Counted from the first letter of the stretch, positions 34,380 through 63,116 are shown. The stretch: DNA of 64,000 nucleotides from Thermoprotei archaeon (GCA_049973945.1 JBMFJH010000005.1:11441-75440), one strand, 5' to 3'. Notes: a model not told the origin generated them from the letters alone. Numbers and translations: made by a program.

Positions 34380-37300
34380 CTTTCAATTCCATAGAGGATT
34401 AACAAAACAATCCCTGTGGACGAGCGTGAAGACCAGTGTAGCTTTCAATTCCATAGAGGATTAACTGATACGGAATTAAACTATGACGAGTACGAACTCT
34501 TTAAGACTTTCAATTCCATAGAGGATTAACGGTGGCTACGTTGTTTACCTGCAGTATCGAGTTTACGGCCTTTCAATTCCATAGAGGATTAACGGGAGAG
34601 GTAGACCCAGACGTTTTCTTCTCTTACTTTGACCTTTCAATTCCATAGAGGATTAACACCAACCCGACAACTTGGCTGTCACGATCGGCACTATAGTCTT
34701 TCAATTCCATAGAGGATTAACGCGAATCCAATAGCGTTCAATATACTGAGAGACATCTACGACCCTTTCAATTCCATAGAGGATTAACGAGTTTCTTAAG
34801 GCAATTCTCGAAAACTTAATTTATGTTTTCTTTCAATTCCATAGAGGATTAACGCAGCATCTTGGCATCGAACGGCGCCGACATGTTCCTGACCTTTCAA
34901 TTCCATAGAGGATTAACGTGAATCCAGCGTTGCGAGCTGTCATGAACCTCTACAGACAAACTTTCAATTCCATAGAGGATTAACGTTCAGCCCTGAACGA
35001 GGGCCTGTACGACATTCTAAAAACTTTCAATTCCATAGAGGATTAACACCACAGCTTGTAGACCCAGCCGGCGATGAGGAGGAACTCTTTCAATTCCATA
35101 GAGGATTAACCCGGTCGCTCTGCTACGCCCCCGGGCACCAGGGACCGAATGCTTTCAATTCCATAGAGGATTAACGCAGTGTGTTGGCCAGAGCTACACT
35201 TACAGCAGTGCAAGCGTCTTTCAATTCCATAGAGGATTAACAACCCCCAATCAAGAAGATGAGATATTGATTTTTCAGTCCGACTTTCAATTCCATAGAG
35301 GATTAACAGCAATCAGCGCAACCCAGCCGACGCTGATCGCTGGAATTCACTTTCAATTCCATAGAGGATTAACTGTTCTGGGCTGTAGCACTAATAGCGC
35401 TTGGTGCATTAGCCTTTCAATTCCATAGAGGATTAACTCAGGCAGATGATGTTGCAGACCATGATGAACATGTTGCTGCTTTCAATTCCATAGAGGATTA
35501 ACTCTGAACTATATAATACATATCTTATGGCAAAGGCAAACTTTCAATTCCATAGAGGATTAACCGACCTTTATCATGACATAGCCGTCGAGGTAGTTTA
35601 TCCGCTTTCAATTCCATAGAGGATTAACGATAGAACATATATTTTATCACGAATTAGGGCCAATTTATACTTTCAATTCCATAGAGGATTAACGCAATTG
35701 GCGTGACTATCCTGGCTTCGTATTAGATGTCCCCTTTCAATTCCATAGAGGATTAACGTCACGATCTACGTGGATCATGACCCCTTAACGGGGAGACCTT
35801 TCAATTCCATAGAGGATTAACCATCTCTCACTTGAACTTATTCAAGACATTTTGATAATTTCACTTTCAATTCCATAAAGGATTAACCCTTATGATTATG
35901 TCTTGGTCGTTGAGGGCTTCTCTGAGCCTTTCAATTCCATAGAGGATTAACCTCCAACGTGCGAAAAGACTGAACAAGAGGACGGAATAATCTTTCAATT
36001 CCATAGAGGATTAACCGGATATCCATTTGAACCAATTTGGCTTTACAAGGTAATTGGCTTTCAATTCCATAGAGGATTAACCCGACAAAGTGGTACGTTG
36101 TACTTGACGAATACCTTGACTTTCAATTCCATAGAGGATTAACACCGAAAAATGGTGAAACTATAACATTGAAAATCACCAACTTTCAATTCCATAGAGG
36201 ATTAACTCGCCCCCTGTAGCCACTATCCATGCTATGATACAGCAAATCTTTCAATTCCATAGAGGATTAACTCGTACTGGTCAAAAAATGAGACGTAAGT
36301 CTATGTGGTAGCTTTCAATTCCATAGAGGATTAACAGAATTCCATAAGCTTTGGAACGACGAAACGGTTGCAAACTTTCAATTCCATAGAGGATTAACGG
36401 GGCGAGTATAGGGGACACGGCGATCTATTTCGTCCTGAAAGCTTTCAATTCCATAGAGGATTAACGCTACAAGGTAAGGAGGGTGAAGCTGTACGACGCG
36501 GCTACCTTTCAATTCCATAGAGGATTAACCGCGGATGTAGATTCTGTCGCCTCCTTTCGCTGCGATGTCTTTCAATTCCATAGAGGATTAACCAGTTCCG
36601 CGCTTGTCAGGGCCGGGCACAGGACTATTTCCTTTCAATTCCATAGAGGATTAACGGCTCAAGGACATTTCGGAGTTCGTTGTACCGGTAATGTCTTTCA
36701 ATTCCATAGAGGATTAACTTCGCTATATTCATTGACTCTGAGTTGATCGAATATGATGCTTTCAATTCCATAGAGGATTAACTGCCTTAGACGACGCTGG
36801 TTGTACTCCGCTTTGCAGAGCAACTTTCAATTCCATAGAGGATTAACACATGGTGACAGGACAAAGCTTCAACGTGAACGTGAACTCCTTTCAATTCCAT
36901 AGAGGATTAACTACCGTTCTGCGTAATAATGGCAATGTCGCCAGATAAACCCTTTCAATTCCATAGAGGATTAACTAATCAGTTTTTTGGTGATATTCCT
37001 GTTACTTTTTACTTTCTTTCAATTCCATAGAGGATTAACGACGAAGAGCTAAGTGCACTAATGACTGCTCGTGTGCTACTTTCAATTCCATAGAGGATTA
37101 ACTAACTACGATGACGAGAAAAGCAAATCTAAGCTGATCATCTTTCAATTCCATAGAGGATTAACCAGCCTACGTATGCGTGGGTCGAAAGTTACACGTC
37201 GTCATCTTTCAATTCCATAGAGGATTAACTTTCCTCTCTTTACGTTAACTGGGGAGTTAACAGAACTCTCTTTCAATTCCATAGAGGATTAACTGATCTG

Positions 37301-37876
37301 CTGCGGTGTGGTCATGAACATCGTCGGCTTCGCCTTTCAATTCCATAGAGGATTAACGGTTTGCAAATACTTTTGCAAACTGACAAGCCGGGATCCGGCT
37401 TTCAATTCCATAGAGGATTAACTAGGGAAAAGCTCGTAAAGTCTGTAGTCCTTACTACGCTTTCTTTCAATTCCATAGAGGATTAACACGCGAGAAAGAC
37501 CCAGTCGAAGAGTATGAGGAAGCGGTCGAGCTTTCAATTCCATAGAGGATTAACACCATAAAGGAGCTGGCTTGGTACGTGTTCAACCTAATAAAACTTT
37601 CAATTCCATAGAGGATTAACGCTATAGCACTAGCGATGACGTACTTCGTGCTTCCGGGAGGCTTTCAATTCCATAGAGGATTAACGCCTTGCTGTTGAAG
37701 TCGGTGAACCCAGCGAACAAGTTATACGCTTTCAATTCCATAGAGGATTAACCGTGACTGGTTGCACCGCAGGAAACTGCATCGGTTGCTTTCAATTCCA
37801 TAGAGGATTAACACCCGCCGGAGCTCAGGGACTCGGGGTGGCAGTTCCTGGTCTTTCAATTCCATAGAGGATTAAC
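34380..37876 (-). CRISPR. CRISPR array 2: 55 repeats, 54 spacers; repeat (transcript sense) GTTAATCCTCTATGGAATTGAAAG
   Basis: Counted repeat by repeat; one variant repeat (..CCATAAAGG.. near 35864). The leader lies at the 37877 side, so minus-strand transcription is inferred. Confidence 0.97.
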
Positions 37877-38317: not shown

Positions 38318-38743
38318 GTGAAGTCCTACTTCACAACGCTCGGCTACACCGAGCAGTTCGTCCTCAGGCTCCTAGCCGAGACCTCCGCCTCCCCCGACGA
38401 CCCCTTCGTGATAGTAGTCCCCTCCCCGATCACCTCCTCGACGAGGACTGCCCTGGAGAACCTCAACGCCTTCTGCTCGAGGGCGAACTACCCCCCGCCG
38501 AAGGTGGTGGAAGTGGCTTTCGACTCCCTCGAGTCGTTGCTCTCCTCCGTGCTCGACGCCCTCTTACCCCTCCCCGAGCCAGTGATCACTGACCTCACCG
38601 TGGGGATGAGGCTCTTCGACGTGGCCATCCTCCTGGCCCTGGTGTCCTCCAGGAAGAGGTTCGTGGCCTACCTGAGGGAGATTGGTCAAGGGAGGGGGAT
38701 TCGCTCAGCAAGATCCTCCTCAGCTCCAGGGCCCTCCAGTTGA
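38318..38743 (+). CDS. Csa3-like CARF domain only (C-terminal wHTH missing from this frame and strand)
   Basis: MKSYFTTLGYTEQFVLRLL.. and ..ITDLTVGMRLFDVAILLAL follow the Csa3 N-domain pattern. The ORF ends after 141 aa in low-complexity sequence. Confidence 0.6.
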   Translation: MKSYFTTLGYTEQFVLRLLAETSASPDDPFVIVVPSPITSSTRTALENLNAFCSRANYPPPKVVEVAFDSLESLLSSVLDALLPLPEPVITDLTVGMRLFDVAILLALVSSRKRFVAYLREIGQGRGIRSARSSSAPGPSS

Positions 38744-38907
38744 TAGAACCTCGAGACTATTTCGCGCCCGCTGACGCTTTCGCCGGTCTCGATGCACTTC
38801 CAGACCCCGGACGAAGGGGATGCCTCTTCACGCCATACTTCTATGTCAGGGAACGGAGTACGCGAAGGGTTGTTAAGAGATAAATTCCCTCATTTCTAAG
38901 CGAGTCC

Positions 38908-39195
38908 TCAGGCCTTCCCAGGCTGGGCGGTCGCCCTCTCCCCTGCCCTCGCCTCCTCCGCCTGACCAGCCCTCCAGGCCGCGAGCTTCACCGCGAGCCT
39001 CCCCAAGGGGGTTAAGGAGACCAGCCTGTCCTTGCCCCTGGTCGTTATTTGGCCCAGCTTCTTCAGGCCACTAGTCCTGTTCAGCATGGTCTTCTCGCTC
39101 CTCTTGAGGGAGTTAGCCAACTCGGTCAGAGTCCTGTCCCTCTCCACGAGCGAGGCGAGGAACCTCAACTCCTCCTCCGAGTAGTCCCTGGTCAA
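38908..39195 (-). CDS. wHTH DNA-binding protein resembling the C-terminal half of Csa3
   Basis: SEEELRFLASLVERDRTLTELANSLKRSEKTMLNRTSGLKKLGQITTRGKDRLVSLTPLGRLAV parallels the wHTH of the Csa3 at 10231-10908; TTG start; lies 125 nt downstream of the 1455-aa gene. Confidence 0.65.
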   Translation of the reverse strand: MTRDYSEEELRFLASLVERDRTLTELANSLKRSEKTMLNRTSGLKKLGQITTRGKDRLVSLTPLGRLAVKLAAWRAGQAEEARAGERATAQPGKA

Positions 39196-39319
39196 GGCGT
39201 TTACTTCGGCGTCGGTGAGCCTGAAGGCCCTGGTCCCGCTCTCCTCGACGGGACGTTCCTGTAAGGGAAACCGGGTAGAAATGACGGAAATAAGGCTAGA
39301 CCAGGTTAACGACGTTAAG

Positions 39320-42300
39320 CTAGAAATGGAGATAGTACAGTTTTGCCAGGGCGAGCTTCACTCTCTCCTCGTCGTTGTTCTCCACCGCCTCGCGTAGGGC
39401 CTTAAAAAGCCCTGAAACTATATCTATGTTAGAATGTATGAGCTCACTTCCCTTCGAGATGGCCCTCACAGTCTCCCTATCGCCGTCGAGCAGGGCGTTT
39501 AATGTGAGTATCAGGTCGCCTACAGACCGATCCGTCGACAGCGCCTGTATGACGGCCCTCGGGCTGAACTCCTTGCTGAGCTCTTCTACGACGCTACCCT
39601 CGGACACGGACTTGAGGTCTTCGACCAGCATCTCGCGCGCAAACCTGTTCCCCTTTAGGGCTAAGCGCAGACCGTTGCAAACGTGTTCGCATAACGTTGC
39701 TTTCTCATCCGGCTCACCCTCATACAGCTCCTCGCACCCCTTCCCACAGTCGACGTCAAGGCCTAGAGAGAGCTTCAGGGCCGGAGCCATGAACCTGAGT
39801 ACCCTGGCGGCACCTAGCACCTCGTCAACGCCGGGCCTCCGGTCGACTACCCCTAAGTAGTTCAGGAGCAGCGTCGTCGCGACCCTCATGGCAAGGGGTA
39901 AATAGTCTAGTAACCAGCCGAGTACTTTGAGAAGTCCCTCCGCCTCGCCCTTGTTGCCAGAAAGTCCCAGGTAAATCAAGTACTCTGCGAGTGTAATACC
40001 CTTTAGCTGCGAACCGCGGGCGTCAATACCTAGCTTCTCCACAGCTTCGTTGAACACCTCCCTGAACTCGCCCGCGGCCTCAATTAGACCCTGGAGGCTG
40101 TCCGCCTTGAGAACCCTCGCTCTCACTAAGAAGGAGTGCGCAGCGACGTAGTTTCCCCAATGCTCTGTCTCCTGGGCGAGAGCTCTGGCCTTCTCGAAGT
40201 GTTTCACCGCGTCGTCGAACTTGCCCTCTCGTAGACTAATAGCACCTGCCGCGGAGTGTAACACCCCCAATATATTCTTCACATGAGAGACTAAGGCCTC
40301 TTTCGGCTGTCTCAGTGATACACCTTTTAAATACTCCCTCACGTTCTCGTCCTTCAACCACTCGTCGAACTTCTCCGCCCTGTCCAAATCGCTTATGAGC
40401 CTCTCTATCTCTCTTGCTAAGTTAATGCCACAATTCAATCCAGTCTTGGTAAGAACCTCAAGAACGCGTGCTTCGGAAGCATACCTAAGAAACTCGCTGC
40501 CCAGCCCTTCGGCCACCTTCAGCAGGAGCTTGGCCGTTTCACATACCACGTTTGGAGGGGCCCCGCCGCCTATCAACGAGGCTAATGCATGAACTAGTCT
40601 AACCTTATTGGAATCCCTCAACTTGTCCAGATCTTCAAGGGAATCCATGACGAATCTTCCGATGCCGAGCAGTGCTTCCTTAATGTCAGCAACTACGTTT
40701 ATAGCAGAGCTGATGAATTCGGCCCAACGGTCGGGCGACTTTCCTCTTAGCGAACTCAAAAGATCTACAGCAGAGACTATAAGATTTGGACGTGTTACAG
40801 TGTCGATGCTCAAGGAAGCTACCCGTAAGGCCTCGTCCGCGAAATCCACTTTGGCGTAGGCGGAGAGGATCGAGAGGCCCAGGCCGTAAATTTCTTCTAG
40901 CAAATGGACTTTTTGCCTTTCCTCCCACTTCTTCAAGAGGGCCTCCAACTCGCCCTTCATCCTGTCGCGCTGAACCATAACGTCGATGAACGGGTTGTCC
41001 ACTAATTTCTCAGCCGAGTACGGCATAAGCAAAAGTCCCTCACTTAAGGGGGTCAGCTCCCCGTCGGCCAACAGCATGTCGAGGGCCCGACACTCGCTTT
41101 CAGGATCGCTCAGGAAGTTAAGGGCCCTTCTGACCGGTTCGGCGAGGTCGCGTTTCCCCTCGTCGCTCATCCTCTTGTAAGCTATAAGGGGTAGCCGGAG
41201 CCCGTGTCCCCCCCTTACAGCACCAAGAGCGAACACTAACGCGTTCCAGCAAGGGCTATTCGGGTCGGCAAGACCTCCTTCGCCGGCTATTACCTCCTTG
41301 ATCTTGCCGCCGTATTCCTTGAATACGTATTTCACGGCTTCTTCCATGCTGTTGACCCTGACCCTCTTCTCTTGATCCATCCAGACGCTCAGGACTTCCC
41401 TTAACTGTTTGTCCTTGATCTCTTCGCCTCTGACGGCCCTCACGATGAGGCTTATCGCGTCCTCCAGAAGGTCCTCGTGCTTCAACGCCAGCCAGTGAGC
41501 TTCCTCCCCCCAATTCTCTTTCTTCCCGCCCAAGTTTAATCCATTCGACCAACGCGCCAGGCGGTTAACGAAGTAGGGGGGCATTACGTACATTCCGCTT
41601 TTCACTGCGTCCTTTAACGGCTCCCTTATGGCCAAGATCTCGGAGAACGCCTCGACCCGTTGTGTATTTATTTCATTATCCTCTTTAATTTTCAGATAGT
41701 CGTTAATCCACCAGACAAGGAAGAGATCCGCCCTACCTCTGGACTCCCTCAGTAACTCTTCAATTCTGCTAACGTTACAGCCTTTCTCCTTTAAATTCTC
41801 GCCAACTAACCTGGCAATTAAAGTATAACCCTCCTTAAACTTCAAGACCTCACTTACTAGGTTACTTAGAGTGTTCTCATCAAACATGCAACCGGAATAA
41901 CTCCTGATTATCTCCTTAAGGAAGTCCATATCGGAAACGTTAAACTCGACACTCTCAACCCTCTTTCTAGCGTCCTCGCGTAACACGTTATAAACATCAT
42001 CCGGTATTACTATGATCGTGGGGACGGAATAAGTCACCCCATCCTTCCCGGAAGTCATGAGATTGAAAATCTTCTCGACCTTACTTACTATAGCCCGAGC
42101 GACCTCCTGCTTCGGCCTTCCCAGACCCCCAACCTCGTAAAATAGTAGAGTTGATGGGTCGTAGAGTAAAACGTATCTCTTGAACCCGATAGCTTCCTCA
42201 ATTGTACTGTGGATCTGACCTTCGTTCAGTGCAGCTAGGTCTATTATGCCCTTTATCTCCCCCTCCTTCAACATCTTTGCCATAAGGTAGTTGATGAAAG

Positions 42301-43687
42301 TGCTCTTGCCCACACCGTGAGGTCCTCTGACTATAAGAATCTTCCCCCCGTCCACGGCCTCCCTAACCTTCTTTACGACGTTAGCGACCTTGTCCTTAAG
42401 GTTCGGAAACCCCTCTGGATCCACGAACTTATAGGAAAGGTTTCCGAACTTAATCCAGGTTTTACCGTCTTTAAATTCTATGTGCAACTGCGATGGCTCA
42501 GTATACAGACTACTTACAATATTCTGAGTTTTCATGACGTTCTCAAGTCGATCTAATCTCTCCTTTAGCCCCTTAATTTCCTTCCTTAGACCTTCGAACG
42601 CCTTCTCCAACTGCTCGACGTCCAGTCCGGTCACCTCGTTTATGGCCTCTAACGCGTCTTCCGGCGTTATCCCCAACTGTAGGGCCACCTTTGACGCTAT
42701 CAACTTCTTAAGCTCGTCGCTTAACTTCCTCCACTTTTCCCCGAAGACGATGAGTTCTTTAACGCTGCCCTCCTCCCTCTCTGTGAGCTTATAAATGAGG
42801 CTTAGGAATATTGCTGTCGCCACGGCTGAAAGCACTATGCCTCCTAGACGTCCGATCGCAACGTCTGCCAACTTCTTTAGACTCTCTTTAGTTAAGTCCT
42901 CGAACAAGCTCTTGACGCTTAGGATCAAGAAGCCCTCGAACTCTACATCCTTCTCGCCCACGAGAAATTTGAGTAGGCTCTCGTAAGCTTCCGCCTGCTC
43001 GATAACGAAGTCCTCCGCGGCTTTACAGCCCTCAACTTTCTCGCAGTTGGCCTCCCTAGCCTCGCTTATGATCTCCTTTACGAAGCCCGGGAGTACGTAT
43101 TTCTTACCCAGCCACTCTGTGGGTTTCTTGAAGTGATCCTTCATTAGCTTAACAGACGCCCTTACGTCGTCGGGTAAACTGTTCTCGTCAATGTCCCAGG
43201 GTATCGCGTAAAATACTACTGCGTCGTAGGATTTGCGTAACTCCTTTAGATGGTTTACTAACTCTTTTGGCAGTTTCTCAACACCGCCCAAGTACTCCCT
43301 AAGAGTCCTCATTTCCTCCTCTGTAAACCCCTCAATTGCGGTATTCCTAACGTCCACGAGCCCTAATCCTATAAGCCTCTTGACTCCTGAAAATATCTTC
43401 ATGATTTGACCAACTTCGTCTTTCTTCTCCCCTGCGATCTCGCGTCTCTCGTTAGGCTTCGCCGGCTTTAAGTTCTCGAACCCAGTTATCGTCTCATAAA
43501 CGTGGGGTAGGTCTTTCAATTTCCCCGTTATTAAGAAGCTCTTCCCGCCCCTTGGGGGGCCAATGACCAGAATTTTAGCGTCTTCACCCTTTTCTACAAT
43601 TGTCTTTTGTAAGATTGGGTAAATGTCACTAGCGTAATAGTTGTTGTTGTACGTGTTGAATAAGTCCTCTCTTTCCTCTGGATTCAA
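39320..43687 (-). CDS. giant STAND/Avs-like NTPase with two P-loops, one TM-like helix, a coiled coil and a C-terminal helical-repeat region
   Basis: Uninterrupted 1455-codon ORF. Walker A GPPRGGKS (aa 43-50); hydrophobic helix aa ~279-301; heptad-like region aa ~357-386. Second Walker A GPHGVGKS (aa 455-462) followed by YVLLYDPS and TIIVIPDD strands and an EGYTLIARLVG (GxP-like) motif. TPR-like helices run to the C-terminus. Visibly AT-richer than the flanking cas genes. Confidence 0.85.
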   Translation of the reverse strand: MNPEEREDLFNTYNNNYYASDIYPILQKTIVEKGEDAKILVIGPPRGGKSFLITGKLKDLPHVYETITGFENLKPAKPNERREIAGEKKDEVGQIMKIFSGVKRLIGLGLVDVRNTAIEGFTEEEMRTLREYLGGVEKLPKELVNHLKELRKSYDAVVFYAIPWDIDENSLPDDVRASVKLMKDHFKKPTEWLGKKYVLPGFVKEIISEAREANCEKVEGCKAAEDFVIEQAEAYESLLKFLVGEKDVEFEGFLILSVKSLFEDLTKESLKKLADVAIGRLGGIVLSAVATAIFLSLIYKLTEREEGSVKELIVFGEKWRKLSDELKKLIASKVALQLGITPEDALEAINEVTGLDVEQLEKAFEGLRKEIKGLKERLDRLENVMKTQNIVSSLYTEPSQLHIEFKDGKTWIKFGNLSYKFVDPEGFPNLKDKVANVVKKVREAVDGGKILIVRGPHGVGKSTFINYLMAKMLKEGEIKGIIDLAALNEGQIHSTIEEAIGFKRYVLLYDPSTLLFYEVGGLGRPKQEVARAIVSKVEKIFNLMTSGKDGVTYSVPTIIVIPDDVYNVLREDARKRVESVEFNVSDMDFLKEIIRSYSGCMFDENTLSNLVSEVLKFKEGYTLIARLVGENLKEKGCNVSRIEELLRESRGRADLFLVWWINDYLKIKEDNEINTQRVEAFSEILAIREPLKDAVKSGMYVMPPYFVNRLARWSNGLNLGGKKENWGEEAHWLALKHEDLLEDAISLIVRAVRGEEIKDKQLREVLSVWMDQEKRVRVNSMEEAVKYVFKEYGGKIKEVIAGEGGLADPNSPCWNALVFALGAVRGGHGLRLPLIAYKRMSDEGKRDLAEPVRRALNFLSDPESECRALDMLLADGELTPLSEGLLLMPYSAEKLVDNPFIDVMVQRDRMKGELEALLKKWEERQKVHLLEEIYGLGLSILSAYAKVDFADEALRVASLSIDTVTRPNLIVSAVDLLSSLRGKSPDRWAEFISSAINVVADIKEALLGIGRFVMDSLEDLDKLRDSNKVRLVHALASLIGGGAPPNVVCETAKLLLKVAEGLGSEFLRYASEARVLEVLTKTGLNCGINLAREIERLISDLDRAEKFDEWLKDENVREYLKGVSLRQPKEALVSHVKNILGVLHSAAGAISLREGKFDDAVKHFEKARALAQETEHWGNYVAAHSFLVRARVLKADSLQGLIEAAGEFREVFNEAVEKLGIDARGSQLKGITLAEYLIYLGLSGNKGEAEGLLKVLGWLLDYLPLAMRVATTLLLNYLGVVDRRPGVDEVLGAARVLRFMAPALKLSLGLDVDCGKGCEELYEGEPDEKATLCEHVCNGLRLALKGNRFAREMLVEDLKSVSEGSVVEELSKEFSPRAVIQALSTDRSVGDLILTLNALLDGDRETVRAISKGSELIHSNIDIVSGLFKALREAVENNDEERVKLALAKLYYLHF

Positions 43688-43722
43688 TGATCCCCTTCCC
43701 CCGTTTTTCGTTAATGACCCAT

Positions 43723-43731
43723 CTTATAAAA
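43723..43731 (-). promoter_or_regulatory. candidate TATA box for the 1455-aa gene
   Basis: TTTTATAAG on the minus strand 36-44 nt upstream of the TTG start, with a purine-rich GGGGAAGGGGA just before the start. Confidence 0.35.
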
Positions 43732-44157
43732 CATAATGTTGAATAAGTGTGTCGAAAATCTGAAGCTAACGGAAAGCTTTCCCTGAGGTTAACTACCATT
43801 GATAATTTGAGAAGAGTCGAAGCGAAAGTGCGGGCCCACGGCGCTTTTCTGGAAGGAACGCGGGGAAAATCACCGGAGAACGTAGACGGTCTGCCGGGAG
43901 CCGGCGAACGCACTCGAGCTTGAGCCGTTTAACGAAGGGAGTACGGCGGTGGACGGTATGGTGCCCGTGTGCTCTTCAGACACTTCTACGGGCACGTACC
44001 GGATAGCGAGGCCGGAGAAGAGGAGGGAAATCGCGGAGATGAGGGGAGGGACGTCTCGACCTATATGAGGACAGGCTAAAATTGTCCTACGCGCTTAAGG
44101 GCCTTAGACATTGCTTTTGCAAACCCGAGTGTAACAGGGGTTCCCCTCGAGGACACG

Positions 44158-44319
44158 TCAGGCTCTCCGTTGACGCCATAACCTCCCACCCCATGGCGAC
44201 CCCCGGAAGGCGCTCCTCTGTATCCTCGACAGTCCTAACTTCTTCAGCTCCTTGGCCAGCCTCAGCCTCTTGGCGTTGTCCGAGACGTCGTAGACCACCA
44301 AGACCAACACGGTAGACAC
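44158..44319 (-). pseudogene. cas2: cas2 remnant (N-terminal ~40 aa recognisable)
   Basis: [40 protein letters not shown] is a typical Cas2 N-terminus starting 3 nt after cas1. The ORF ends after 53 aa and no frame restores a normal Cas2 C-terminus. Confidence 0.55.
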
Positions 44320-44322
44320 CGC

Positions 44323-45231
44323 CTAAAGCTCCGCCCTGAAGCCCCTGTATGCCCTCCCGTCTTTGACGGCCGAGGCCAGCTTGACCGCGTGGGCCCTCAT
44401 GGCCTGGTCTAGGGTCTTGGGGTTGTGGTCGCCCAACTCCCTGTACCTCTCGTCGAAGACCCTCAGCACGACCTTGGCCAGCTCCCTCCTGCTCTCTGGG
44501 GAAATCAGCCCGTCCTTCACCTGGAGCCTGAGGCCCGACAAAAACGCCCTGACCAGGGCGAAGTCTACCAACGGCTTGAACATCTCCGAGAAGTCGAAGA
44601 CCAGCGCCGGGCTCCCCGGCCTGTCCCTGTGGACGAAGCCCAGGTAGGGGTCTAGGCCCGCTAAGAAGAGGTACTTGTAGGCCTTGGAGTAGAGTATGGC
44701 GTAGCTGTAGTTCAGGGCCAGGTTGAACTGGTCTTTAGCCTCGGGGTCCCTCCCGTCGAAGTTCAAGTCCCTGGGTAGGACTTGGGCTAACTCCCCCCAA
44801 TAGAGCCTGGCAGCTGTAGGCTCGTCCTTATCCAGGATGCTCTTATAGTCCACCCTGAACCCCTTCCTCGCCTAGTGCTTGACGTGGGCCGCTTGGTTGT
44901 AGATCTTGGCCGAGACCATCTCTCCCCCGTACCTCTCAGCGGAGCTCAGGTAGGCCTCGTACTGCTTGACCCTAGTCTTCACGGTCTCTGTGCCTAGGGA
45001 GGGCGTCAAGACGCCCCAGGGGCTCCCGTTCCTGTCGAGGAAGAACAGCGTTATCCCGTGCTTGAGGGCGAGCCTAATAGCCTGGACTGTAATGGCCCCC
45101 GAGGAGGATATCAGTATCTCGTCGACCTCAGCGGGCGGAACCTCGACCTTCCTGTCCTTGAACTGTACCACGAAGACCCCGTTCTTGACCTTGAGCAGGG
45201 AGCCGTGGTCCGAAACGACTAGGGTCTTCAA
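44323..45231 (-). pseudogene. cas1: cas1 interrupted by an in-frame TAG
   Basis: N-part (TTG 45231, LKTLVVSDHGSLLKVKNGVF.., 119 codons) and C-part (NLALNYSYAILY, GFVHRDRPGSPALVFDFSEMFKP) share one frame, separated only by TAG at 44872-44874 (..AAHVKH*ARKGFRVDYKS..). TTGA overlap with the upstream gene. Confidence 0.85.
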
Positions 45232-46076
45232 GCCTTCGCTCCCCCGTTGCAGTAGGAGTAGAAGGGGCAGGATGAGGGGCAGACCGCGGGCCTCCCCGGG
45301 TCCTTCTCCTCCGAGATCAGCTCGACGACCTCGTCCCTGGCGTCGATGAACTGCCTCCTCAGGTCGGGGGAGATGTAGTAGACCTCGTAGGAGATTTTGG
45401 GAACCCCCTCGCTCAGGCCGTTGACGTAGACCAGGGCCCCGAAGTCCACGGGGAGCTCGAGGTTGCTTTCGAGGGCCATGGCGTAGCCAGCTAAAGCCAA
45501 CCTGTGGAAGTCCTGCGGCGAGCCCAGCTTGAACTCGACGACCATGGAGAGGGAAGTTATCGCGTCGACCGAGAGCCTCGGGGAGAGGCCCAAGGGGGTA
45601 CCGTCGACCCTGACCTCCGAGAAGGTTGGCAGCAACGGGGAGTCCGAGCCGTCCGAGAGGAGGTCGAGAGCGAAGGCCTCGTAGAGCGATGAACAATAGG
45701 CGGAGTACTTGGGGGGACAGAGGGAGGACGCCCTCCTGGAGTTGTAGACCGCTAGCTCCATGGCCTTGTAGGGCGGCAAGCCGGAGGAGAGCCACCTCGA
45801 GACGTCCCTAGAGGCCCTGGCGAGCACCTCGTGCACGGCCTTGCCTAAGGTTAACGGCTCCCTGGCCTCGCCCTGCAAGTTCAGGACCTTCCGCAGGTAG
45901 ACGTCCCTCTTGGTGGGGCAGTAGCGGTAGGCCACGTCAGCCATCGAGAGCCCCAGGTAGCGCCTGGGCTTTACAGGTGGACGGGTGTAGGACCAGCCCC
46001 TGAGCTCCTCCTCCACGGGGTCGGAGGCCCTGTAGGAGTGGAGCCTCCTGAGCTGCCTCAGGACCTGGAGCTTCAT
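45228..46076 (-). CDS. Cas4-superfamily nuclease, Csa1-like (I-A adaptation module)
   Basis: N-terminal YCPTKRDVYL Cys plus C-terminal CPSSCPFYSYC cluster; RecB-like D..(10)..E-x-K in VDAITSLSMVVEFK; 282 aa (Csa1 size rather than Cas4). Confidence 0.75.
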   Translation of the reverse strand: MKLQVLRQLRRLHSYRASDPVEEELRGWSYTRPPVKPRRYLGLSMADVAYRYCPTKRDVYLRKVLNLQGEAREPLTLGKAVHEVLARASRDVSRWLSSGLPPYKAMELAVYNSRRASSLCPPKYSAYCSSLYEAFALDLLSDGSDSPLLPTFSEVRVDGTPLGLSPRLSVDAITSLSMVVEFKLGSPQDFHRLALAGYAMALESNLELPVDFGALVYVNGLSEGVPKISYEVYYISPDLRRQFIDARDEVVELISEEKDPGRPAVCPSSCPFYSYCNGGAKA

Positions 46077-46616: not shown

Positions 46617-49083
46617 GTTAATCCTCTATGGAATTGAAAGACGTGCTGACGGATATGCCCGTGTACTTCCCTGCAGATGGGTTAATCCTCTATGGAATTG
46701 AAAGATTATCATGATAGCAGCGCCTGGAGGGCTCATCGCTTTCGTTAATCCTCTATGGAATTGAAAGAATCGCGAAGCGAGAGAGGACTGAGGAGCTGAA
46801 ATTGTAGAGTTAATCCTCTATGGAATTGAAAGCGCTGAATAGAAAGATCAGGTACTTAGAGAAGCTGTCGATGTTAATCCTCTATGGAATTGAAAGTGAT
46901 AGGCGGCTAGATGGAGGGGAGTTTCGCCATTATTGGTTAATCCTCTATGGAATTGAAAGCGTGACAACCTCCAAGCCCTTCAAGACGGAGCTTGTTGCTG
47001 TTAATCCTCTATGGAATTGAAAGCGCGGTACGCGCTCGTGGTTAAACGTCAAGACGAGGAGATGTTAATCCTCTATGGAATTGAAAGGTAATGCAGTCGC
47101 TGTTGCTGTGCCAGCCCGTTATCGTGTTAATCCTCTATGGAATTGAAAGCAGCAACACCTCGACCTGTTGAATCCTCTTGGTATAGTAGTTAATCCTCTA
47201 TGGAATTGAAAGCCATCTGTGATCGGGTTCATGATTCCGTCGTCCATGTTCACAAGGTTAATCCTCTATGGAATTGAAAGCTCACCTTTCAGTATAAATA
47301 GATAGCTATAATCGAAATCTGTTAATCCTCTGTGGAATTGAAAGGGAGAAGCTCGCCACAGTCCTTTCGCTCCTGCCTTACTCGTTAATCCTCTGTGGAA
47401 TTGAAAGACTTCAATATCGAGTCAGCCAGCTCTCCGAGGTAGTCGTGTTAATCCTCTGTGGAATTGAAAGGCGTAAGTTCAGGCGGTGGGCTCTCTTGAC
47501 CGACTCTTTCTTTGTGTTAATCCTCTGTGGAATTGAAAGCTTTCCTGTCGTTTTCCTCACACCACGCGACGTACGCCTGTTAATCCTCTGTGGAATTGAA
47601 AGACAACGACACTTGGTTTAATGTCCTGTGGGTTCAGGATCCGTTAATCCTCTATGGAATTGAAAGTACTGATCATGATCTTCTTTCCGTTTAACGTGAG
47701 AACGTCGTTAATCCTCTGTGGAATTGAAAGTTAATTCTTATTTTTAAACTGTCTACAAGTTCATTTAAACTGTTAATCCTCTGTGGAATTGAAAGCGAGC
47801 TACACGAACACTACGCTGCAGCCGTTCCCCTTGGTTAATCCTCTGTGGAATTGAAAGTCGACGGCGTTGTGATGAGGCGAGGTAGATGCGTTCGTCAGTT
47901 AATCCTCTGTGGAATTGAAAGAAATACGTACTGTACTACTACCTAGCGTTTAACGGCTCGTCGTTAATCCTCTGTGGAATTGAAAGGTCATTTCCATAGC
48001 CCCTCTCTTCCTCAGCTCTCTTACTATGTTAATCCTCTGTGGAATTGAAAGTCTCTGTGCCCCATGCCCGCAACAGCACTTTCCCGCAATGGGGTTAATC
48101 CTCTGTGGAATTGAAAGGTATTCCAGTTGCGCATAAAGCGGTGACCCGCTCTTGACCGTTAATCCTCTGTGGAATTGAAAGAAGATCTCTCGCTCTCTGT
48201 CAGCAGTATTGAGGAGGAAGAGTTAATCCTCTGTGGAATTGAAAGAGATCCTGCTCCCAGGTCACATCGAACGGGTCAATCCTGTTCTTTAACAGTTAAT
48301 CCTCTGTGGAATTGAAAGCATGTATACGTTGTATAGGTGGTTCACGTGATGGCACGTTAATCCTCTGTGGAATTGAAAGATCGGTAGGGTGACGTTGGTA
48401 GTACTGGTTCCAGAGGTTAATCCTCTGTGGAATTGAAAGACTCCTTTCTATCTATAAGAACGCCATCAAGGATCGTGTTAAGTTAATCCTCTGTGGAATT
48501 GAAAATATTTCAATAGCAATAACGGCTTATCATACTCCATCCCCGCGTGTTAATCCTCTGTGGAATTGAAAGAGCTCTTTGGCTACTTCAACTATTTCGA
48601 AAATACCTCCCGTTAATCCTCTGTGGAATTGAAAGATTAGGTTCGCCAATGCTGTCGGCTGGAGAACCGATTGACGTCAATCCTCTATGGAATTGAAAGC
48701 GTTCGAACACGGGGTTGAACTTGTGGGGCGGGACTTCGTCGTTAATCCTCTGTGGAATTGAAAGCAATCTCGTTCTCGACGTGCTCTGCAGGTCTCAGGG
48801 ATGTTAATCCTCTGTGGAATTGAAAGTTTTCAAAGTCCATCTCCTTAATGACCAGCCATGCTTTTCCGTTAATCCTCTGTGGAATTGAAAGCTGGTTCGG
48901 TGGAAACGGCGAGAAGTCGAAAACAATGAGTTAATCCTCTATGGAATTGAAAGGCGTACTCAGTATATTTCGTTATAGGTATTTGTAGACTTGGTTAATC
49001 CTCTATGGAATTGAAAGTAGTCCCTGAGGCCCTGCACGACCTTGTATGCGTGGAAGTCGGTTAATCCTCTATGGAATTGAAAG
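46617..49083 (+). CRISPR. CRISPR array 3: 39 repeats, 38 spacers; two repeat alleles (..CTCTATGG.. and ..CTCTGTGG..)
   Basis: Counted repeat by repeat. Repeats 1-11, 17, 33 and 37-39 carry A at repeat position 12; the other 23 carry G. Leader is upstream on the plus strand. Confidence 0.97.
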
Positions 49084-49308: not shown

Positions 49309-49710
49309 TTACACTAAGGGCAACTCGAAGGGCTCCAGTATCCTGATCCCTAGTCTCAGGATCTCCTCCGCGCTCACCTCCCCATTCAGCTTCGCGCTAA
49401 CCAAACGCCGTCCCTTGAGCTCGAACTTCGACGACCTCCTTATCAGCTCGTTGAGCCTCTTGACGTTGTATACCACCCCCTTGAACTCCCTCACCCTCTC
49501 CTTCACCACGAAGTCTTCCGGGTCGTCCGGGATAGGGATGGGCTTCCCGTAAACGTTGAGTATCACGAAGCCCCTGTCCCCCCTCAGCAGGTTCAGCAAT
49601 GAGTCGAAGAGCTCCCTCTCGCTCCCGCAGTAGTACCACTTCATGACCTTGCCCTCGTAGACCCTCTCGCAGGGGCTGCCGTCGCCCTTCGAGTTAGTTA
49701 TGTACATCAT
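49309..49710 (-). CDS. small conserved protein encoded directly downstream of cas10, unknown function
   Basis: 133 aa, 12-nt gap after cas10, same strand; a truncated second copy lies at 17524-17739. Confidence 0.6.
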   Translation of the reverse strand: MMYITNSKGDGSPCERVYEGKVMKWYYCGSERELFDSLLNLLRGDRGFVILNVYGKPIPIPDDPEDFVVKERVREFKGVVYNVKRLNELIRRSSKFELKGRRLVSAKLNGEVSAEEILRLGIRILEPFELPLV

Positions 49711-49722
49711 GTTGCCTCGCGT

Positions 49723-52044
49723 CTACTCCCTCTTCAGTAGCGAGTACATGTTAACAGCAGTCCTGAACTTGAGCAGGAACGAAAGGACTTTTTCCGCGTC
49801 GTCGCCGGGATAGGTCAGGAACTTCTTGTAGATCCCCTTCATCTCCTCGGCGTACTTCTCGTTCCTGGCGTTCAGGTAGGCGTAGCTGACCAGCGCCCTG
49901 TGATCCTCGCCCGCCTCGACCATCGACCCTATCTGGTAGAGCTTGTAGAGGTAAGCGCTCGGCACCTTGTCCCCGATGTTCTTAGCGACAGTTAGGAACT
50001 CCTCGGCCTCCTCCCAGCTGAGCGAGGTCAGCTCCTTACTCCCCTCCCTGTACTTCTCGAAGATGTTGCTCGCCACCCTGCCCCCGCTCCCCGTCCTCTC
50101 AGCCTTCGCTAAGGCCTCGTACTCCCTAGCGAAGGAGTAGGCGTAGGCTATGGGGTACTTCTTCTTGAAGACGAACACTCCCCCGGAGACCGAGATCGAC
50201 GGTATTACCCTTCTGACCAGCTTCGAGAGGCGGACGAGGAGCTCGAAGGCCTCGTCCCACTTCCCGTAGACCGCCAGGTCGTCTCCCCCGGAGTAGAGTA
50301 TCACGACCGGGGCCCCCTGGCCAGTCCTATCGGTGACCTCCCTCACCACTACGTGCGCGAAGGCGAAGTCCAACAGGGTCGAGAACGTCATGAACCTGCC
50401 GGGGAAGGCGGAGAGCCTCTTGGCGATCTCGCCTATCCTGTCCCCGTCCGTCACCCCCAGGGCGAGGTAATTGCCGAGCTCGTCGAGGCTCTTGAACCTA
50501 CCCCCCTCGTCCACGGGGTGGTAGGTGCTCAGGGTGATGTAGCCGAAGCTGACCCCCTCCTCTGCCAGCTCCTCGAGGACGAAGTTCGTGGTGTCGTTGA
50601 CCGCGAACACCCTTATCCTCTTTGCGACGTCTTTCTTGGTCTGGATCAGGCTCTTCAAGAACGCGACGTCTTTCCTGTTGCCTGTCGTGCCCTTCCTGGA
50701 CTCGTCCCCTCTCACGTTGTGGACTAACAGGAAGCCCACGTTCAGAGGCTCTATGTAGATCTCGCCGACGTTGTCCCTGTAGGCGTTCTCCCCCCTCGCC
50801 CCGTCCTTGTACACCACCTCTATCACGTAGTCCAGGTTCCTCGTCGAGTGGCCGACGATCAGGGAGATCAGGTTCATCTCCGAGATGTACTGCGGCCTTC
50901 CTGTTTCGGCGCGGGGCGTAACCTCGCCGGCGGTCAGCGTCTCTATCCCCTCTACCTTATCGACCTCGTAGTACCTGGGGCTCAGGTCGCCGAAGTAGTC
51001 GACCTTGACGTCCTTAGTCACGGAGGGTCTGCCGACTGTCCGGAGGTTCTTGAAGGCTTCGTCCAGAGCCCTCTGGAAGTCCCTGTCCTCCTCGTTCTCG
51101 CTGTATATCTTCATCTTCGCCACTTCTATTTCCCCGCTGAGCGAGTAGGCGAACTGGAGCTCGTAAGCGCTCCACTCCTCGAGGTCGGTCAGCACTTTCT
51201 CTACGTCTTTCACCTTCTTCTCGTCCAGGCCACAGGCCACGAATATCAGCTTGCCCGGTTCGAAGGATATGTTGTGCAACGAGGTCAGTCCCAGGACTTC
51301 GGCGAGCTTGTCCGTCAGGGCCCTCTGGAGCAGCTGGAGGAAGAAGCTCCTCCCCCTCAGCCTCTTGGAGGTCTCCGCCTCCCCCTTCACGTTGGTCAGG
51401 AACCTCTGGATCCCCTTGACGTCGATCAAGAGGAGCCTCACCTTCTGGCAGACGGAGAGTGGGGCGGCCAGCCTGCTGTGGCCGTAGAGCGTCGTATTGG
51501 GCACAGCTTGGTAAACAGCTGCCGGCACCAGCAACGCGACCGTCCTGTATATGTAGTCGTAGGTCTCGAGGAGGCTCAGTGGGTCCTTTATCTTCTTGGC
51601 CTTTTCGGCCAGGCTCTTGAGTACCTCCTCGATCTTCTTGTAGCTCACGAAGGCCTCGCTCATTTTCCTAGTCCCGTAGCTTTCAGGGCGCGCGTTGAAG
51701 TCTATGTAAGTCACGGGGTACCAGACCTCCTTGTCCCGCAGTTTGTCCAGGTCGTTTGGGCTCACGTCTAGGACGGGGTCTAGCAGGGGGGTCGTGAAGG
51801 GCTGTTGGGGGCCGGCCTCGGTTCCTATCCTCTCGGAGGCCGACGCGTAGTCCGCTACCCTCCACTTCCCCTCCTTGAATATCTTGACGTACTCCTCGCC
51901 CAGGTAGTCCTGAAGGAAGTCACACGTCAGTCTGTCGTGTTCGTGGAAGTCGCCTTCAAGGACGCACCTCGGCCTCTCCCCGGCCCTTTGCAGTATTTTC
52001 CCCACGTCGTGGAGCAGGGTGACCAGTATCAGCTTCGCGTCCAT
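49723..52044 (-). CDS. cas10: Cas10 (type III large subunit) with HD and GGDD motifs
   Basis: N-terminal HD (LLHDVGK, H12-D13, later HEHD); Palm-1-like LLLIDVKGIQRFL; cyclase motif ILYSGGDDLAVYG; 773 aa. Confidence 0.9.
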   Translation of the reverse strand: MDAKLILVTLLHDVGKILQRAGERPRCVLEGDFHEHDRLTCDFLQDYLGEEYVKIFKEGKWRVADYASASERIGTEAGPQQPFTTPLLDPVLDVSPNDLDKLRDKEVWYPVTYIDFNARPESYGTRKMSEAFVSYKKIEEVLKSLAEKAKKIKDPLSLLETYDYIYRTVALLVPAAVYQAVPNTTLYGHSRLAAPLSVCQKVRLLLIDVKGIQRFLTNVKGEAETSKRLRGRSFFLQLLQRALTDKLAEVLGLTSLHNISFEPGKLIFVACGLDEKKVKDVEKVLTDLEEWSAYELQFAYSLSGEIEVAKMKIYSENEEDRDFQRALDEAFKNLRTVGRPSVTKDVKVDYFGDLSPRYYEVDKVEGIETLTAGEVTPRAETGRPQYISEMNLISLIVGHSTRNLDYVIEVVYKDGARGENAYRDNVGEIYIEPLNVGFLLVHNVRGDESRKGTTGNRKDVAFLKSLIQTKKDVAKRIRVFAVNDTTNFVLEELAEEGVSFGYITLSTYHPVDEGGRFKSLDELGNYLALGVTDGDRIGEIAKRLSAFPGRFMTFSTLLDFAFAHVVVREVTDRTGQGAPVVILYSGGDDLAVYGKWDEAFELLVRLSKLVRRVIPSISVSGGVFVFKKKYPIAYAYSFAREYEALAKAERTGSGGRVASNIFEKYREGSKELTSLSWEEAEEFLTVAKNIGDKVPSAYLYKLYQIGSMVEAGEDHRALVSYAYLNARNEKYAEEMKGIYKKFLTYPGDDAEKVLSFLLKFRTAVNMYSLLKRE

Positions 52045-52049
52045 CTAGG

Positions 52050-53060
52050 TCACCCGACGCACAGCCTCGCCCAACCGACCCCTACGGAGTCGATCAGCTT
52101 GACCGTGCTGTCGTCCCAGAAGTGTTCCGTCACCTTTGTCATGACCTTGCTCCTAAGGCTCTCCAAGTCGGGTGGCAGCGGGATCGTCTTCGCCTTGTGG
52201 CCGGTGAACATGCCTACTTTCACAGGGAAGCAGTTGCCCTCGACCTTCAGGGTGTCGAGGAACTTCCTGTACTCCTGGAACTTTGACGCGGCCTTCAACT
52301 TCTCCTTCTCCGAGGAGACCACGCGCTCGCTGTAGGCCTTGAGGGCGCTCACTATCGCGTCCTTGTTCACCAAGTCGTCCAGCGCCTTGAGCTGGGCGTT
52401 CACGCCGTAGTTCTGAGGCTGTACTACCTTCACGTCGTAGGTCAGCGTCCCTCTGTCGAGGGTTATCGCGTAGGCCTGGGTGGAGAAGCTCCCCACGAGT
52501 TCTGAGACCTTGATTAGGCGGAGGGAGAGGGAGAAGCCCTTGACCTCCGGGTCGCTGATCAAAAGCCTGCTGAAAGCGTCGTAGTTGTACGTGCCCCTCC
52601 CGAACTGCAGCCTCCTCTTTAGGAGGAGCTCCACCGGGCCTCCCACTTCCTTCACTCTCTTAGGTATCTGGTGTTTCGGCAACCTCATGAGCTCCTCCAA
52701 GTTCGAGCGCACCTCCTCGTACACGTCCTTGTTGACCATCCTGCTGAGCACGGCTGTCCTGATAAGCCCCTTGACGGTCGACGCGGGTATCAGGTTCTCG
52801 TTAATCATGAGTATCCTGTCGGGCGCGGGGGAGGTGGAGGGGGTGGAGAAAACCAGTTTGAAGCCCCTGACCTCCCTCGCGAACTCCTCCCTGAATACGT
52901 CGCTCAGGGCCTTGACCTTCCCCATGGCCTTGAAGGGGTCGGCGACTATTAGCCTCTCGCCTACCAGCTCGAAGTCGGCCCCTCTGTACAGCGTCTCCCC
53001 GCTCCACACGAAGACGGGGGTGATCGGTGAGACTTCTATGGTGAAGGACTCCTTGATCAT
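52050..53060 (-). CDS. csm5: RAMP protein, Csm5-like (Cas7 group)
   Basis: SPITPVFVWSGETLYRGADFELVGERLIVADPFK, IPASTVKGLIRTAVL (G-rich-loop equivalent), LLISDPEV, KVGMFTGHKAKT, C-terminal VGVGWARL. Confidence 0.65.
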   Translation of the reverse strand: MIKESFTIEVSPITPVFVWSGETLYRGADFELVGERLIVADPFKAMGKVKALSDVFREEFAREVRGFKLVFSTPSTSPAPDRILMINENLIPASTVKGLIRTAVLSRMVNKDVYEEVRSNLEELMRLPKHQIPKRVKEVGGPVELLLKRRLQFGRGTYNYDAFSRLLISDPEVKGFSLSLRLIKVSELVGSFSTQAYAITLDRGTLTYDVKVVQPQNYGVNAQLKALDDLVNKDAIVSALKAYSERVVSSEKEKLKAASKFQEYRKFLDTLKVEGNCFPVKVGMFTGHKAKTIPLPPDLESLRSKVMTKVTEHFWDDSTVKLIDSVGVGWARLCVG

Positions 53061-53078
53061 CCCTCGCTTGACCTCTCC

Positions 53079-54017
53079 TCAGGACTGCTGCGTGATTAGC
53101 TTGATGAGGTTGTCGATCTCTTTGGCCAGCTCTTCGACGGAGTTCAGCGGCTTTTCCTTGAACTTCGTCTCCTTGTTAGCCTGAGGGTCGTAGACTGAGA
53201 CGTCTATACTGGTGAACTCCACCCTCCCGTATCCCCTCGAGCCGTAGGCCCCCAAGTAGGTCTTCTCCAACAGCGTCATACCCTTCGTCAGGAGGTTCAG
53301 GAACTCCTTAACCGAGTTCGCGTTCTTATCGAAGACTAAGAGCGAGATCGTGCCGGTGAACGGCACCCCGGGCTTAACCCTGCTGACTTCCCTTGGATCG
53401 GCGGCCGACGTGACCCTGTCTATCCTGTTCTCGCCCTTGTCCTCTATGAAGTCGTCGAAGGTGACAAGGCCGTTCCTCTTGTAGATGTCGCAGACGTACC
53501 CCTTAGAGGGGAACAAGTCCTCCACCAACAGGGCCGTCGGCGTCAACACCTTCAGCAGCTCAGCCAACTCCTGCTTGTTCTTTAGCCCGTCCTGCAGTTC
53601 CCTTATGGGGAAGGCGCCGTAGCCGAAGAGCCTGTCCAACGGGGTGTCCTTCAGCGCCTTGACGAACTCCTCGTCGGTTATCCTCGTCCCCGCCAAGTCC
53701 TTGAATATCCCCCTAGCCATTATGTGGGCCCATATCTTCCTGTCGGACGAGTAGAGCGGTAACCCGAGGGCGACCTCCAGCAACGACCTCATTCTCCCCT
53801 TCAGCGACGAACCGGGGATATAGGGCACCCTGACCGTGATCTTCTTGTTTTGATCGCCCTCGCAGGCGTACTCCCTCTCAACGCTCATCGGCTCTATGTC
53901 GGAGCCCCCGATGCGGCCCAAAGCCCTGCCGCCCGAGATCAGCAGGCCAGTCTTAGTCGTAAGTTCGACGTTGAGCCTCACGATCTTGAGTAGCTTTAGC
54001 GAGAGCTGGCTGGACAC
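53079..54017 (-). CDS. csm3: RAMP backbone subunit, Csm3/Cmr4-like (Cas7)
   Basis: GLLISGGRALGRIGGSDIEP and VPYIPGSSLKGRMRSLLE motifs; 312 aa. Confidence 0.8.
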   Translation of the reverse strand: MSSQLSLKLLKIVRLNVELTTKTGLLISGGRALGRIGGSDIEPMSVEREYACEGDQNKKITVRVPYIPGSSLKGRMRSLLEVALGLPLYSSDRKIWAHIMARGIFKDLAGTRITDEEFVKALKDTPLDRLFGYGAFPIRELQDGLKNKQELAELLKVLTPTALLVEDLFPSKGYVCDIYKRNGLVTFDDFIEDKGENRIDRVTSAADPREVSRVKPGVPFTGTISLLVFDKNANSVKEFLNLLTKGMTLLEKTYLGAYGSRGYGRVEFTSIDVSVYDPQANKETKFKEKPLNSVEELAKEIDNLIKLITQQS

Positions 54018-54018
54018 C

Positions 54019-61778: not shown

Positions 61779-63116
<1,338 letters not shown>

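Follow-up and report, generated by a model that had tools for sequence, protein, structure and literature searches.

We analysed a 64,000-nucleotide stretch of DNA from a Thermoprotei archaeon (GCA_049973945.1 JBMFJH010000005.1:11441-75440), hereafter the window, in which a large gene at 39320..43687 lies between two inverted CRISPR arrays, inside a broken cas adaptation cassette. Its product has a central nSTAND3-type NTPase and a helical solenoid of roughly 750 amino acids (aa). In front of these stands an N-terminal module, conserved in the family, which comprises a P-loop domain, a helical bundle round a hydrophobic hairpin, and a helix with a leucine heptad. Members of the family spread by horizontal transfer; the family duplicates in tandem, is often pseudogenised, and has no fixed partner gene. 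We consider the gene to encode a stand-alone conflict sensor of the STAND (signal transduction ATPases with numerous domains) type, similar to the nucleotide-binding leucine-rich repeat receptors (NLR), from a family found so far only in hyperthermophilic Thermoproteota, and we put the probability of this reading at about one in two. Data underlie the assignment to STAND and the mobile lifestyle in islands, while a function in defence and a mechanism at the membrane are what we infer. The gene and the parts of its product, some of them taken from an AlphaFold2 (AF2) model, are as follows.

39320..43687 including the stop codon, minus strand: STAND-family protein gene, 1455 aa, TTG start.
43043..43687, minus strand: alpha/beta P-loop domain, aa 1-215 (AF2), with conserved IPW and Y-[IV]-P-P-G-L-V-x-E and generic P-loop matches only.
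43538..43561, minus strand: first Walker A motif GPPRGGKS, aa 43-50, its Lys retained in 21 of 35 family members.
42623..43042, minus strand: helical bundle, aa 216-355 (AF2), enclosing a hydrophobic helix-turn-helix.
42779..42880, minus strand: the hydrophobic helix-turn-helix, aa 270-303, with its core at aa 281-299 (LGGIVLSAVATAIFLSLIY).
42506..42619, minus strand: single 38-residue helix with a leucine heptad, aa 357-394, a candidate coiled coil.
42428..42481, minus strand: small three-stranded beta unit, aa 403-420 (AF2), before the NTPase.
41588..42355, minus strand: STAND nucleotide-binding oligomerisation domain (NOD) module, aa 445-700, with nucleotide-binding, helical, and winged-helix-like domains.
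42302..42325, minus strand: second Walker A motif GPHGVGKS, aa 455-462, with G455, G458, G460, and K461 invariant in 35 of 35 members.
42155..42175, minus strand: Walker B motif YVLLYDP, aa 505-511, with D510 and P511 invariant and the second acidic residue absent.
41801..41833, minus strand: EGYTLIARLVG, aa 619-629 (GYTLIARLxG family-wide), at the position of the STAND GxP motif.
39323..41587, minus strand: C-terminal all-helical solenoid, aa 701-1455, a putative sensor, with weak TPR matches only (aa 1144-1187).

An earlier description made without database searches (the sequence-only reading) had proposed a central STAND-type NTPase with a long helical region behind it, and our analysis supports both. 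The Pfam family nSTAND3 (PF20720) was matched by 30 of the 35 members of a family alignment, with a best E-value of 2.7e-10. Residues L623, A625, G629, W732, and E742 are also invariant in this alignment. The AF2 model of aa 430-1455 had a mean predicted local distance difference test score (pLDDT) of 88 and a predicted template modelling score (pTM) of 0.80, and the order of secondary structure in its NOD is five beta-alpha units, helices, a beta-hairpin, and helices again. The best multi-domain match of this model upon Foldseek search against the PDB was 6MFV, a STAND-TPR protein of P. horikoshii (E 7.6e-4, probability 1.0, 878 columns). RuvB, ORC/Cdc6, NOD2, and NRC3 were among the weaker matches listed (E 8.5e-4 to 0.02). 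As in STAND proteins, Walker A (GPHGVGKS) and Walker B (VLLYD, aa 506-510) are both present, and the nucleotide-binding, helical, and winged-helix domains (NBD-HD-WHD) are followed by a repeat-type C-terminus. The element GYTLIARLxG is probably the counterpart of the GxP motif. Three pairs of cysteines, C600/C637, C813/C866, and C1318/C1337, are conserved in 27-31 of the 35 members, the latter two pairs lying in the solenoid. They may form disulfides inside the cell, a common feature among hyperthermophilic Crenarchaeota, or bind metal. In the window copy C1318/C1337 are part of a C-x3-C...C-x3-C cluster.

The N-terminal 445 residues were modelled with a pLDDT of 86 and a pTM of 0.80. Here, aa 281-299 form the most hydrophobic 19-residue segment of the whole protein (Kyte-Doolittle mean 2.15), and a 19-residue segment with a mean of at least 1.8 was found in 27 of the 35 members, usually in a run of 20-46 uncharged residues, often with Gly or Pro at its centre. 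Were the segment a single helix across the membrane, one of the P-loop domains would lie outside the cell, so it is more sensibly read as a hairpin that is re-entrant or inserts conditionally. Behind it, leucines L360, L367, L374, and L381 follow each other at a spacing of seven, and matches to coiled coils were weak. The two P-loops, hydrophobic helix, and coiled coil that had been described are present in this protein, the coiled coil as a candidate, but two P-loops do not define the family, because the first Walker A is degenerate (e.g. GSSR), or its domain absent, in about 40% of the aligned members.

Neither the fold nor the catalytic class of this module could be matched to a known one in the libraries searched. 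By Foldseek, the N-terminal model had no relative in PDB or BFVD (best E 0.22 and 0.023, respectively), and searches of aa 1-430 for a known effector (nuclease, SIR2, TIR, or protease) with Pfam, NCBIfam, and PADLOC gave only P-loop matches. The domain was considered as a duplicate of the NOD, and this was rejected, as hhalign aligned only 29 P-loop columns. A PDB profile search for a specific NTPase class likewise gave about equally weak, generic P-loop matches to ORC4, NSF, adenylate kinase, and the Pnkp kinase domain. An ABC-F identity (NCBIfam, E 3.5e-5) was also discarded, since the match spans coiled-coil and P-loop and is far under the cut-off.

The family came to light only when HMMER was run exhaustively with a profile built on aa 1-1050. 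At E<=1e-3 there were 243 clusters, and 93 of them remained at E<=1e-30, a large number being 1400-1500 aa long and matching from end to end. A word-indexed protein search with the single sequence found two relatives only, and such searches with the single sequence and with a 35-member profile gave no more than 3-5 matches. In their source records, the members are unlabelled, are called 'hypothetical protein', or carry various automatic labels that refer to P-loops or TPRs, and the family has no name in the Pfam, NCBIfam, or PADLOC libraries. Related loci were sought with 11 closer members. All genome matches were from Thermoproteota, namely Vulcanisaeta distributa, Sulfolobales Acd1, Pyrobaculum sp. 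WP30, Thermoproteus sp. CP80, and metagenome-assembled genomes (MAGs) of Thermoproteaceae, Caldivirga, and Desulfurococcales, together with one Acidilobus MAG. A metagenome scan confirmed the family gene at 231 further places. Open reading frames (ORFs) of at least 1300 aa, i.e. full-length, were present in 79 of 95 loci, and the proteins are alignable throughout, with a mean pairwise identity of 30-33% in the NOD, the most conserved part, and 20-28% elsewhere.

Only one of 72,556 plasmids matched the family. This was the conjugative plasmid pNOB8 of Sulfolobus sp. NOB8H2, whose copy is 43% identical (L014, NC_006493.1; 8989-12692 and 392-723) and consists of two annotated hypothetical ORFs with the C-terminal end missing. 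A mini-CRISPR of six repeats (CTTTCAATTCTATAGTAGATTATC, near the repeat of the window) lies about 8 kb from the family gene on this plasmid. No match to the family was found in 50,697 phage records. Besides pNOB8, fragmented copies were found in V. distributa and in one further locus (L002), and five loci (L090, L091, L055, L032, and L006) have two or three full-length paralogues in a row. Such tandem arrays of paralogues are typical of NLR-type receptor families.

The neighbourhoods of homologues were compared in 13 earlier loci (flanks of up to 10 kb) and 80 metagenome loci (the latter 750 kb in total). Homologues lie in variable islands of defence genes and mobile elements, with housekeeping genes there as well. 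Type IIG restriction-modification or N6-methyltransferase genes adjoin the homologues in L008, L009, and L016; a DpdJ/DrmA-like helicase and HerA are near them in L007, L003, and L005. A CARF-TM protein is found in L009, PLD-like proteins with an integrase fragment in L019, HEPN-MNT in L016, and PIN-MazE in L018. Other neighbours are Mokosh-like helicases, a tubulin-like protein, and a transposase. Integrase ORFs of the pNOB8 type lie near the family gene in seven loci, and a DDE transposase fragment adjoins the gene of the closest relative. No neighbour gene is conserved across lineages.

A recurrent linkage of the homologues to CRISPR or cas1 was not borne out. CRISPR arrays were found in none of the 13 earlier loci and in one of the 80 metagenome loci, and tblastn with csa1, cas1, cas2, csa3, and cas10 of the window found nothing in any homologue locus. 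The one array (L042, 3089-3565) has eight repeats of CTTTCAGCCCCTTTGATGGATGCATC and lies 1.3 kb upstream of the homologue.

Within a Sulfolobales-like subclade (L027, L036, L038, L045, L050, and others), the gene order is a divergent ORF of 128 aa, an ORF of 62 aa, the family gene, and a 254-aa protein, which has an N-terminal signal anchor and is secreted. These three neighbours were considered as partners and not retained; they have no Pfam matches, are absent from other lineages and from the window, and look like lineage synteny. A link to MADS-type systems was suggested by the PADLOC model mad8 (E 4.8e-7) and by the N6-methyltransferase neighbours in L008, L009, and L016. We rejected it as a generic P-loop match because an unrelated HerA matches mad8 better (E 1.6e-12).

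If the large protein is indeed a conflict sensor, its action may be pictured as follows. The solenoid would bind a ligand derived from the invader, by which autoinhibition would be released, and nucleotide exchange would then lead to oligomerisation via the NOD. The coiled coils would gather the N-terminal modules, whose hydrophobic hairpins, once exposed, would enter the membrane. Collapse of the membrane potential would stop the infected cell, i.e. abortive infection. The N-terminal P-loop domain might serve as a regulatory or auxiliary unit in this scheme, as it is degenerate in many relatives. Our more specific proposal, which we offer as tentative and rather doubtful, is that of a new, Thermoproteota-specific NLR-type receptor, whose effector would have a new fold (a P-loop domain and a bundle hiding a hydrophobic hairpin) and would cause a resistosome-like membrane lesion on oligomerisation. 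If true, this would be a candidate case of archaeal cell suicide that is driven by a STAND protein and aimed at the membrane, the effector being gated by a second nucleotide-binding domain.

Several points weigh against this picture. AF2 packs the hydrophobic helix inside a soluble bundle, the likeness of the N-terminal model to pore-formers upon Foldseek search is not significant (SmhB, E 0.33, probability 0.06), and the putative membrane role is read from hydrophobicity and a predicted helix-turn-helix. The window protein itself is under the Pfam cut-offs, with 19.5 vs 27.2 bits for nSTAND3 and 21.2 vs 26.7 for NACHT. Foldseek TM-scores were low (0.2-0.3) and the best E-values about 1e-3; accordingly, the likeness to 6MFV, NOD2, NRC3, and ORC holds at the level of domains. 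Hydrolysis of ATP may be weak, since Walker B is without its second acidic residue. None of the PADLOC Avs models matched the protein at E<=1, the best PADLOC match being mad8. As for the function of the family in defence, it is suggested by sequence and model evidence; housekeeping genes too are among the neighbours of the homologues, and the defence genes there, found in several loci, are raw occurrences.

The known system most like this one is Avs5 (AVAST type 5), in which nSTAND3 is combined with a TPR-like sensor and an N-terminal SIR2 effector (bioRxiv 10.1101/2025.07.08.663546). Both have an N-terminal module, an nSTAND3-type NTPase, and a helical-repeat C-terminus, and both are single-gene systems that spread horizontally. 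However, the large protein has neither SIR2 nor another known effector, its N-terminal 445 aa are without a structural relative, and its family is one of hyperthermophilic archaea, known from sequences and models. The Avs/NLR-like layout that had been proposed stands as far as the STAND module and helical C-terminus are concerned, while membership of a named Avs family does not. PH0952 of Pyrococcus horikoshii (PDB 6MFV) shares the NBD-HD-WHD module followed by helical repeats, but it has 641 residues, is missing the 445-aa module at the N-terminus as well as most of the 750 aa of solenoid, and is 11% identical (TM-score 0.2-0.3). The plant ZAR1/NRC resistosomes and the HeLo/HET-S effectors of fungal NLRs offer an analogy of mechanism, in which a STAND oligomer gathers helical domains and a hidden helix enters the membrane. 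Foldseek also matched the NOD, more weakly, to NRC3 and NOD2 (E about 0.017-0.02). Unlike the resistosomes and HeLo/HET-S effectors, the large protein carries an additional P-loop domain at its front and shows no detectable homology to them in its N-terminal module, and its membrane insertion is a conjecture.

The effector part had also been given a KAP-NTPase flavour. KAP proteins have transmembrane helices inserted inside the NTPase domain, and the large protein resembles them in combining a P-loop with a hydrophobic segment that might sit in the membrane. But this segment (aa 281-299) lies outside the NTPase domains (aa 39-215 and aa 445-585), behind the first P-loop domain and 150 aa ahead of the second, and there is no KAP_NTPase among the Pfam matches listed (25 of 29 at E<=1). 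This comparison was therefore dropped.

STAND/NLR sensors are central to the innate immunity of plants, animals, fungi, and bacteria. We know of no such sensor that has been studied in hyperthermophilic Crenarchaeota. The viruses of these archaea have few proteins in common with tailed phages, which are what known Avs proteins sense. The present family could reveal what an archaeal NLR senses, and with it a new type of effector; having a relative on pNOB8, a plasmid of Sulfolobus, it is experimentally approachable. A census in 2026 distinguished 589 prokaryotic STAND clades (PMC12803255).

Three other explanations of the gene were weighed. It might be the cargo of a mobile element and serve that element, through competition between plasmids or integrated elements, entry exclusion, or addiction; the insertion that removed cas4 and broke csa3 would then be either a by-product or a benefit to the element, by disabling spacer acquisition. 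The copy on pNOB8 with its 43% identity, the pNOB8-type integrase ORFs in seven loci, and the DDE transposase fragment beside the closest relative all fit this, as do the foreign composition of the window gene and a breakpoint of the csa3 inversion that adjoins its 3' end. We still consider it unlikely, for the plasmid-borne copy is a split one and the only one in 72,556 plasmids, the phage records have none, and most copies are on chromosomal contigs beside housekeeping genes; in the window, moreover, the low-GC segment holds this gene only, and integrase, att-like repeats, and element genes were not found. This explanation overlaps with that of a conflict sensor, because defence genes commonly ride mobile elements.

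A housekeeping role is less probable still. Here the protein would be a membrane-associated signalling or remodelling ATPase, a STAND switch like MalT or PH0952 without a part in conflict, and one could cite the fact that 6MFV is the best multi-domain structural match, that some loci are flanked by housekeeping genes, and that the proteins are alignable over their full length, C-terminus included. What we would not expect of such a gene are its patchy distribution, a copy number that varies from none to three in tandem, frequent pseudogenes, a plasmid-borne copy, a foreign composition in the window, and the lack of a neighbour conserved across lineages; nor did Pfam and NCBIfam find any output domain, DNA-binding or other, of the kind usual in STANDs that act as regulators. 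Finally, the gene could be a CRISPR accessory, coupled to adaptation or to type III cyclic oligoadenylate (cOA) signalling and placed between the leaders for co-regulation. Its position in the window invites this reading, and so do a CARF-TM gene 1.5 kb upstream in one Caldivirga locus, the eight-repeat array 1.3 kb upstream in one metagenome locus, and the mini-array 8 kb away on pNOB8. Against these isolated cases stand the 13 loci without an array in their fetched flanks, the single array in 80 metagenome loci, and the absence of tblastn matches to the five window cas genes from every locus. Pfam and PADLOC found no domain for sensing cOA in the protein, be it CARF, SAVED, or another, and the cassette around the gene is broken. 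The comparative data thus nearly exclude a CRISPR accessory, and we regard it as very improbable.

The large gene of the window appears to have come from elsewhere. Its GC content is 0.507, with 0.626 at third codon positions (GC3), compared with a GC of 0.59-0.64 and GC3 of 0.85-0.90 in csa1, cas1, csa3, and cas10, so it is AT-richer than the flanking cas genes, as the sequence-only reading had noted. Step-downs in GC bound the gene at about 39300 and about 43800, and the low-GC segment consists of the gene and its promoter and nothing else. No integrase or other element genes were found in this segment, and a search for att-like direct or inverted repeats around it gave only short, chance-level repeats. 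The closest full-length relative found (P0009) is 53% identical. GC3 is 0.42-0.49 in the closest relatives (P0009, pNOB8, P0017, and P0018), 0.63 in the window gene, and about 0.87 in host genes; this fits horizontal acquisition from a lower-GC donor lineage, with partial amelioration or from an intermediate donor. The copy landed in a I-A adaptation cassette, by now a defective one, at the end where cas4 and csa3 belong, and its location is best explained as incidental to its function. A position inside a CRISPR cassette can thus mislead, marking a landing site in a decaying adaptation module and not a functional partnership.

The uninterrupted ORF of 1455 codons was confirmed on the minus strand, and the motifs GPPRGGKS, GPHGVGKS, and EGYTLIARLVG are at the residues at which they had been quoted. 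So many stop-free codons at such a composition would occur by chance with a probability of about (61/64)^1455, roughly 1e-30 by arithmetic. The TTG start agrees with the N-termini of homologues (MSNSGDDLF aligned to MNPEEREDLF). The gene is intact, as claimed: it keeps 24 of 24 invariant or near-invariant family residues, which indicates no decay of this copy, unlike its neighbours. Two putative signals were read from the sequence upstream of the start.

43724..43730, minus strand: TTTATAA, a TATA-like box that lies 37-43 nt upstream of the start.
43689..43696, minus strand: Shine-Dalgarno-like AGGGGATC, directly upstream of the TTG.

The former may act as a promoter element, and the latter is Shine-Dalgarno-like by its complementarity to the 3' end of 16S rRNA. 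A perfect 12-nt direct repeat (TGTTGAATAAGT) at 43654-43665 and 43737-43748 flanks the start codon and promoter, and may be due to chance.

The CRISPR arrays of the window and the remains of the adaptation cassette are listed below.

28194-29875: CRISPR array with 27 repeats; its repeat is a variant ending ...GGATTATC.
34380..37876, minus strand: CRISPR array of 55 repeats, leader side towards the cassette.
38318..38743, plus strand: CARF half (N-terminal) of csa3 (Csa3_N, E 1.6e-32).
38908..39195, minus strand: winged helix-turn-helix (wHTH) half (C-terminal) of csa3, aligning to residues 147-218 of the Csa3 structure 2WTE (E 4.5e-13).
43688..44157: GC-rich stretch without an ORF, between truncated cas2 and the large gene.
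44158..44319, minus strand: cas2, truncated, 53 aa.
44323..45240, minus strand: cas1, a continuous frame of 305 codons with a single in-frame TAG at 44872-44874.
45228..46076, minus strand: csa1, intact (E 2.8e-88).
46617..49083, plus strand: CRISPR array of 39 repeats, inverted relative to that at 34380..37876, leader side towards csa1.

All three arrays belong to one repeat family, and a degenerate solitary repeat lies at 28003-28026, near the array of 27 repeats. The two arrays beside the cassette were oriented by what we take to be the usual orientation of crenarchaeal repeats, which ends in ATTGAAAG. As they are transcribed away from the cassette, on the minus strand at 34380-37876 and on the plus strand at 46617-49083, both leaders face the central cassette, and the leader-cas-leader arrangement described around the ORF is correct. 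Spacers of the three arrays had no match in the large gene, its homologues, or pNOB8, the longest agreements being 14-19 nt.

The adaptation module between the leaders is decayed, as had been recognised. In cas1 the TAG reflects a nonsense mutation or else an error of assembly; cas2 is cut short, csa3 lies in two pieces, and cas4 is unrecognisable: a six-frame search of 43690-44170 for its remnant gave nothing recognisable. The 470 bp between cas2 and the large gene have a positive GC skew and no long ORF. What had been taken for a separate Csa3-type wHTH gene downstream of the large gene is a gene fragment, namely the inverted C-terminal half of the broken csa3, the CARF half of which lies on the other strand. 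The open frame of the wHTH half runs on upstream to about 39260-39318. An in-place inversion of roughly 38700-39260 would explain the two halves on opposite strands, and its right breakpoint adjoins the stop codon of the large gene.

Downstream of the right-hand array (within 49309-63053) are several CARF genes and a type III module, which has Cas10 at 49723-52044 and a RAMP protein at 53079-54017. Beyond this module are an AAA_15/ABC-like ATPase at 55019-55972, whose GC3 is lower (0.71), an AAA_14 ATPase at 57061-58236, a Csx1-type CARF protein at 58511-59485, and a Cas_APE2256/SSO1393-like protein at 61779-63053. Elsewhere in the window, in a low-GC stretch at about 19000-22000, a 399-aa ORF on the minus strand (20185-21384, GC3 0.56) without a Pfam match is likely to be another foreign gene.

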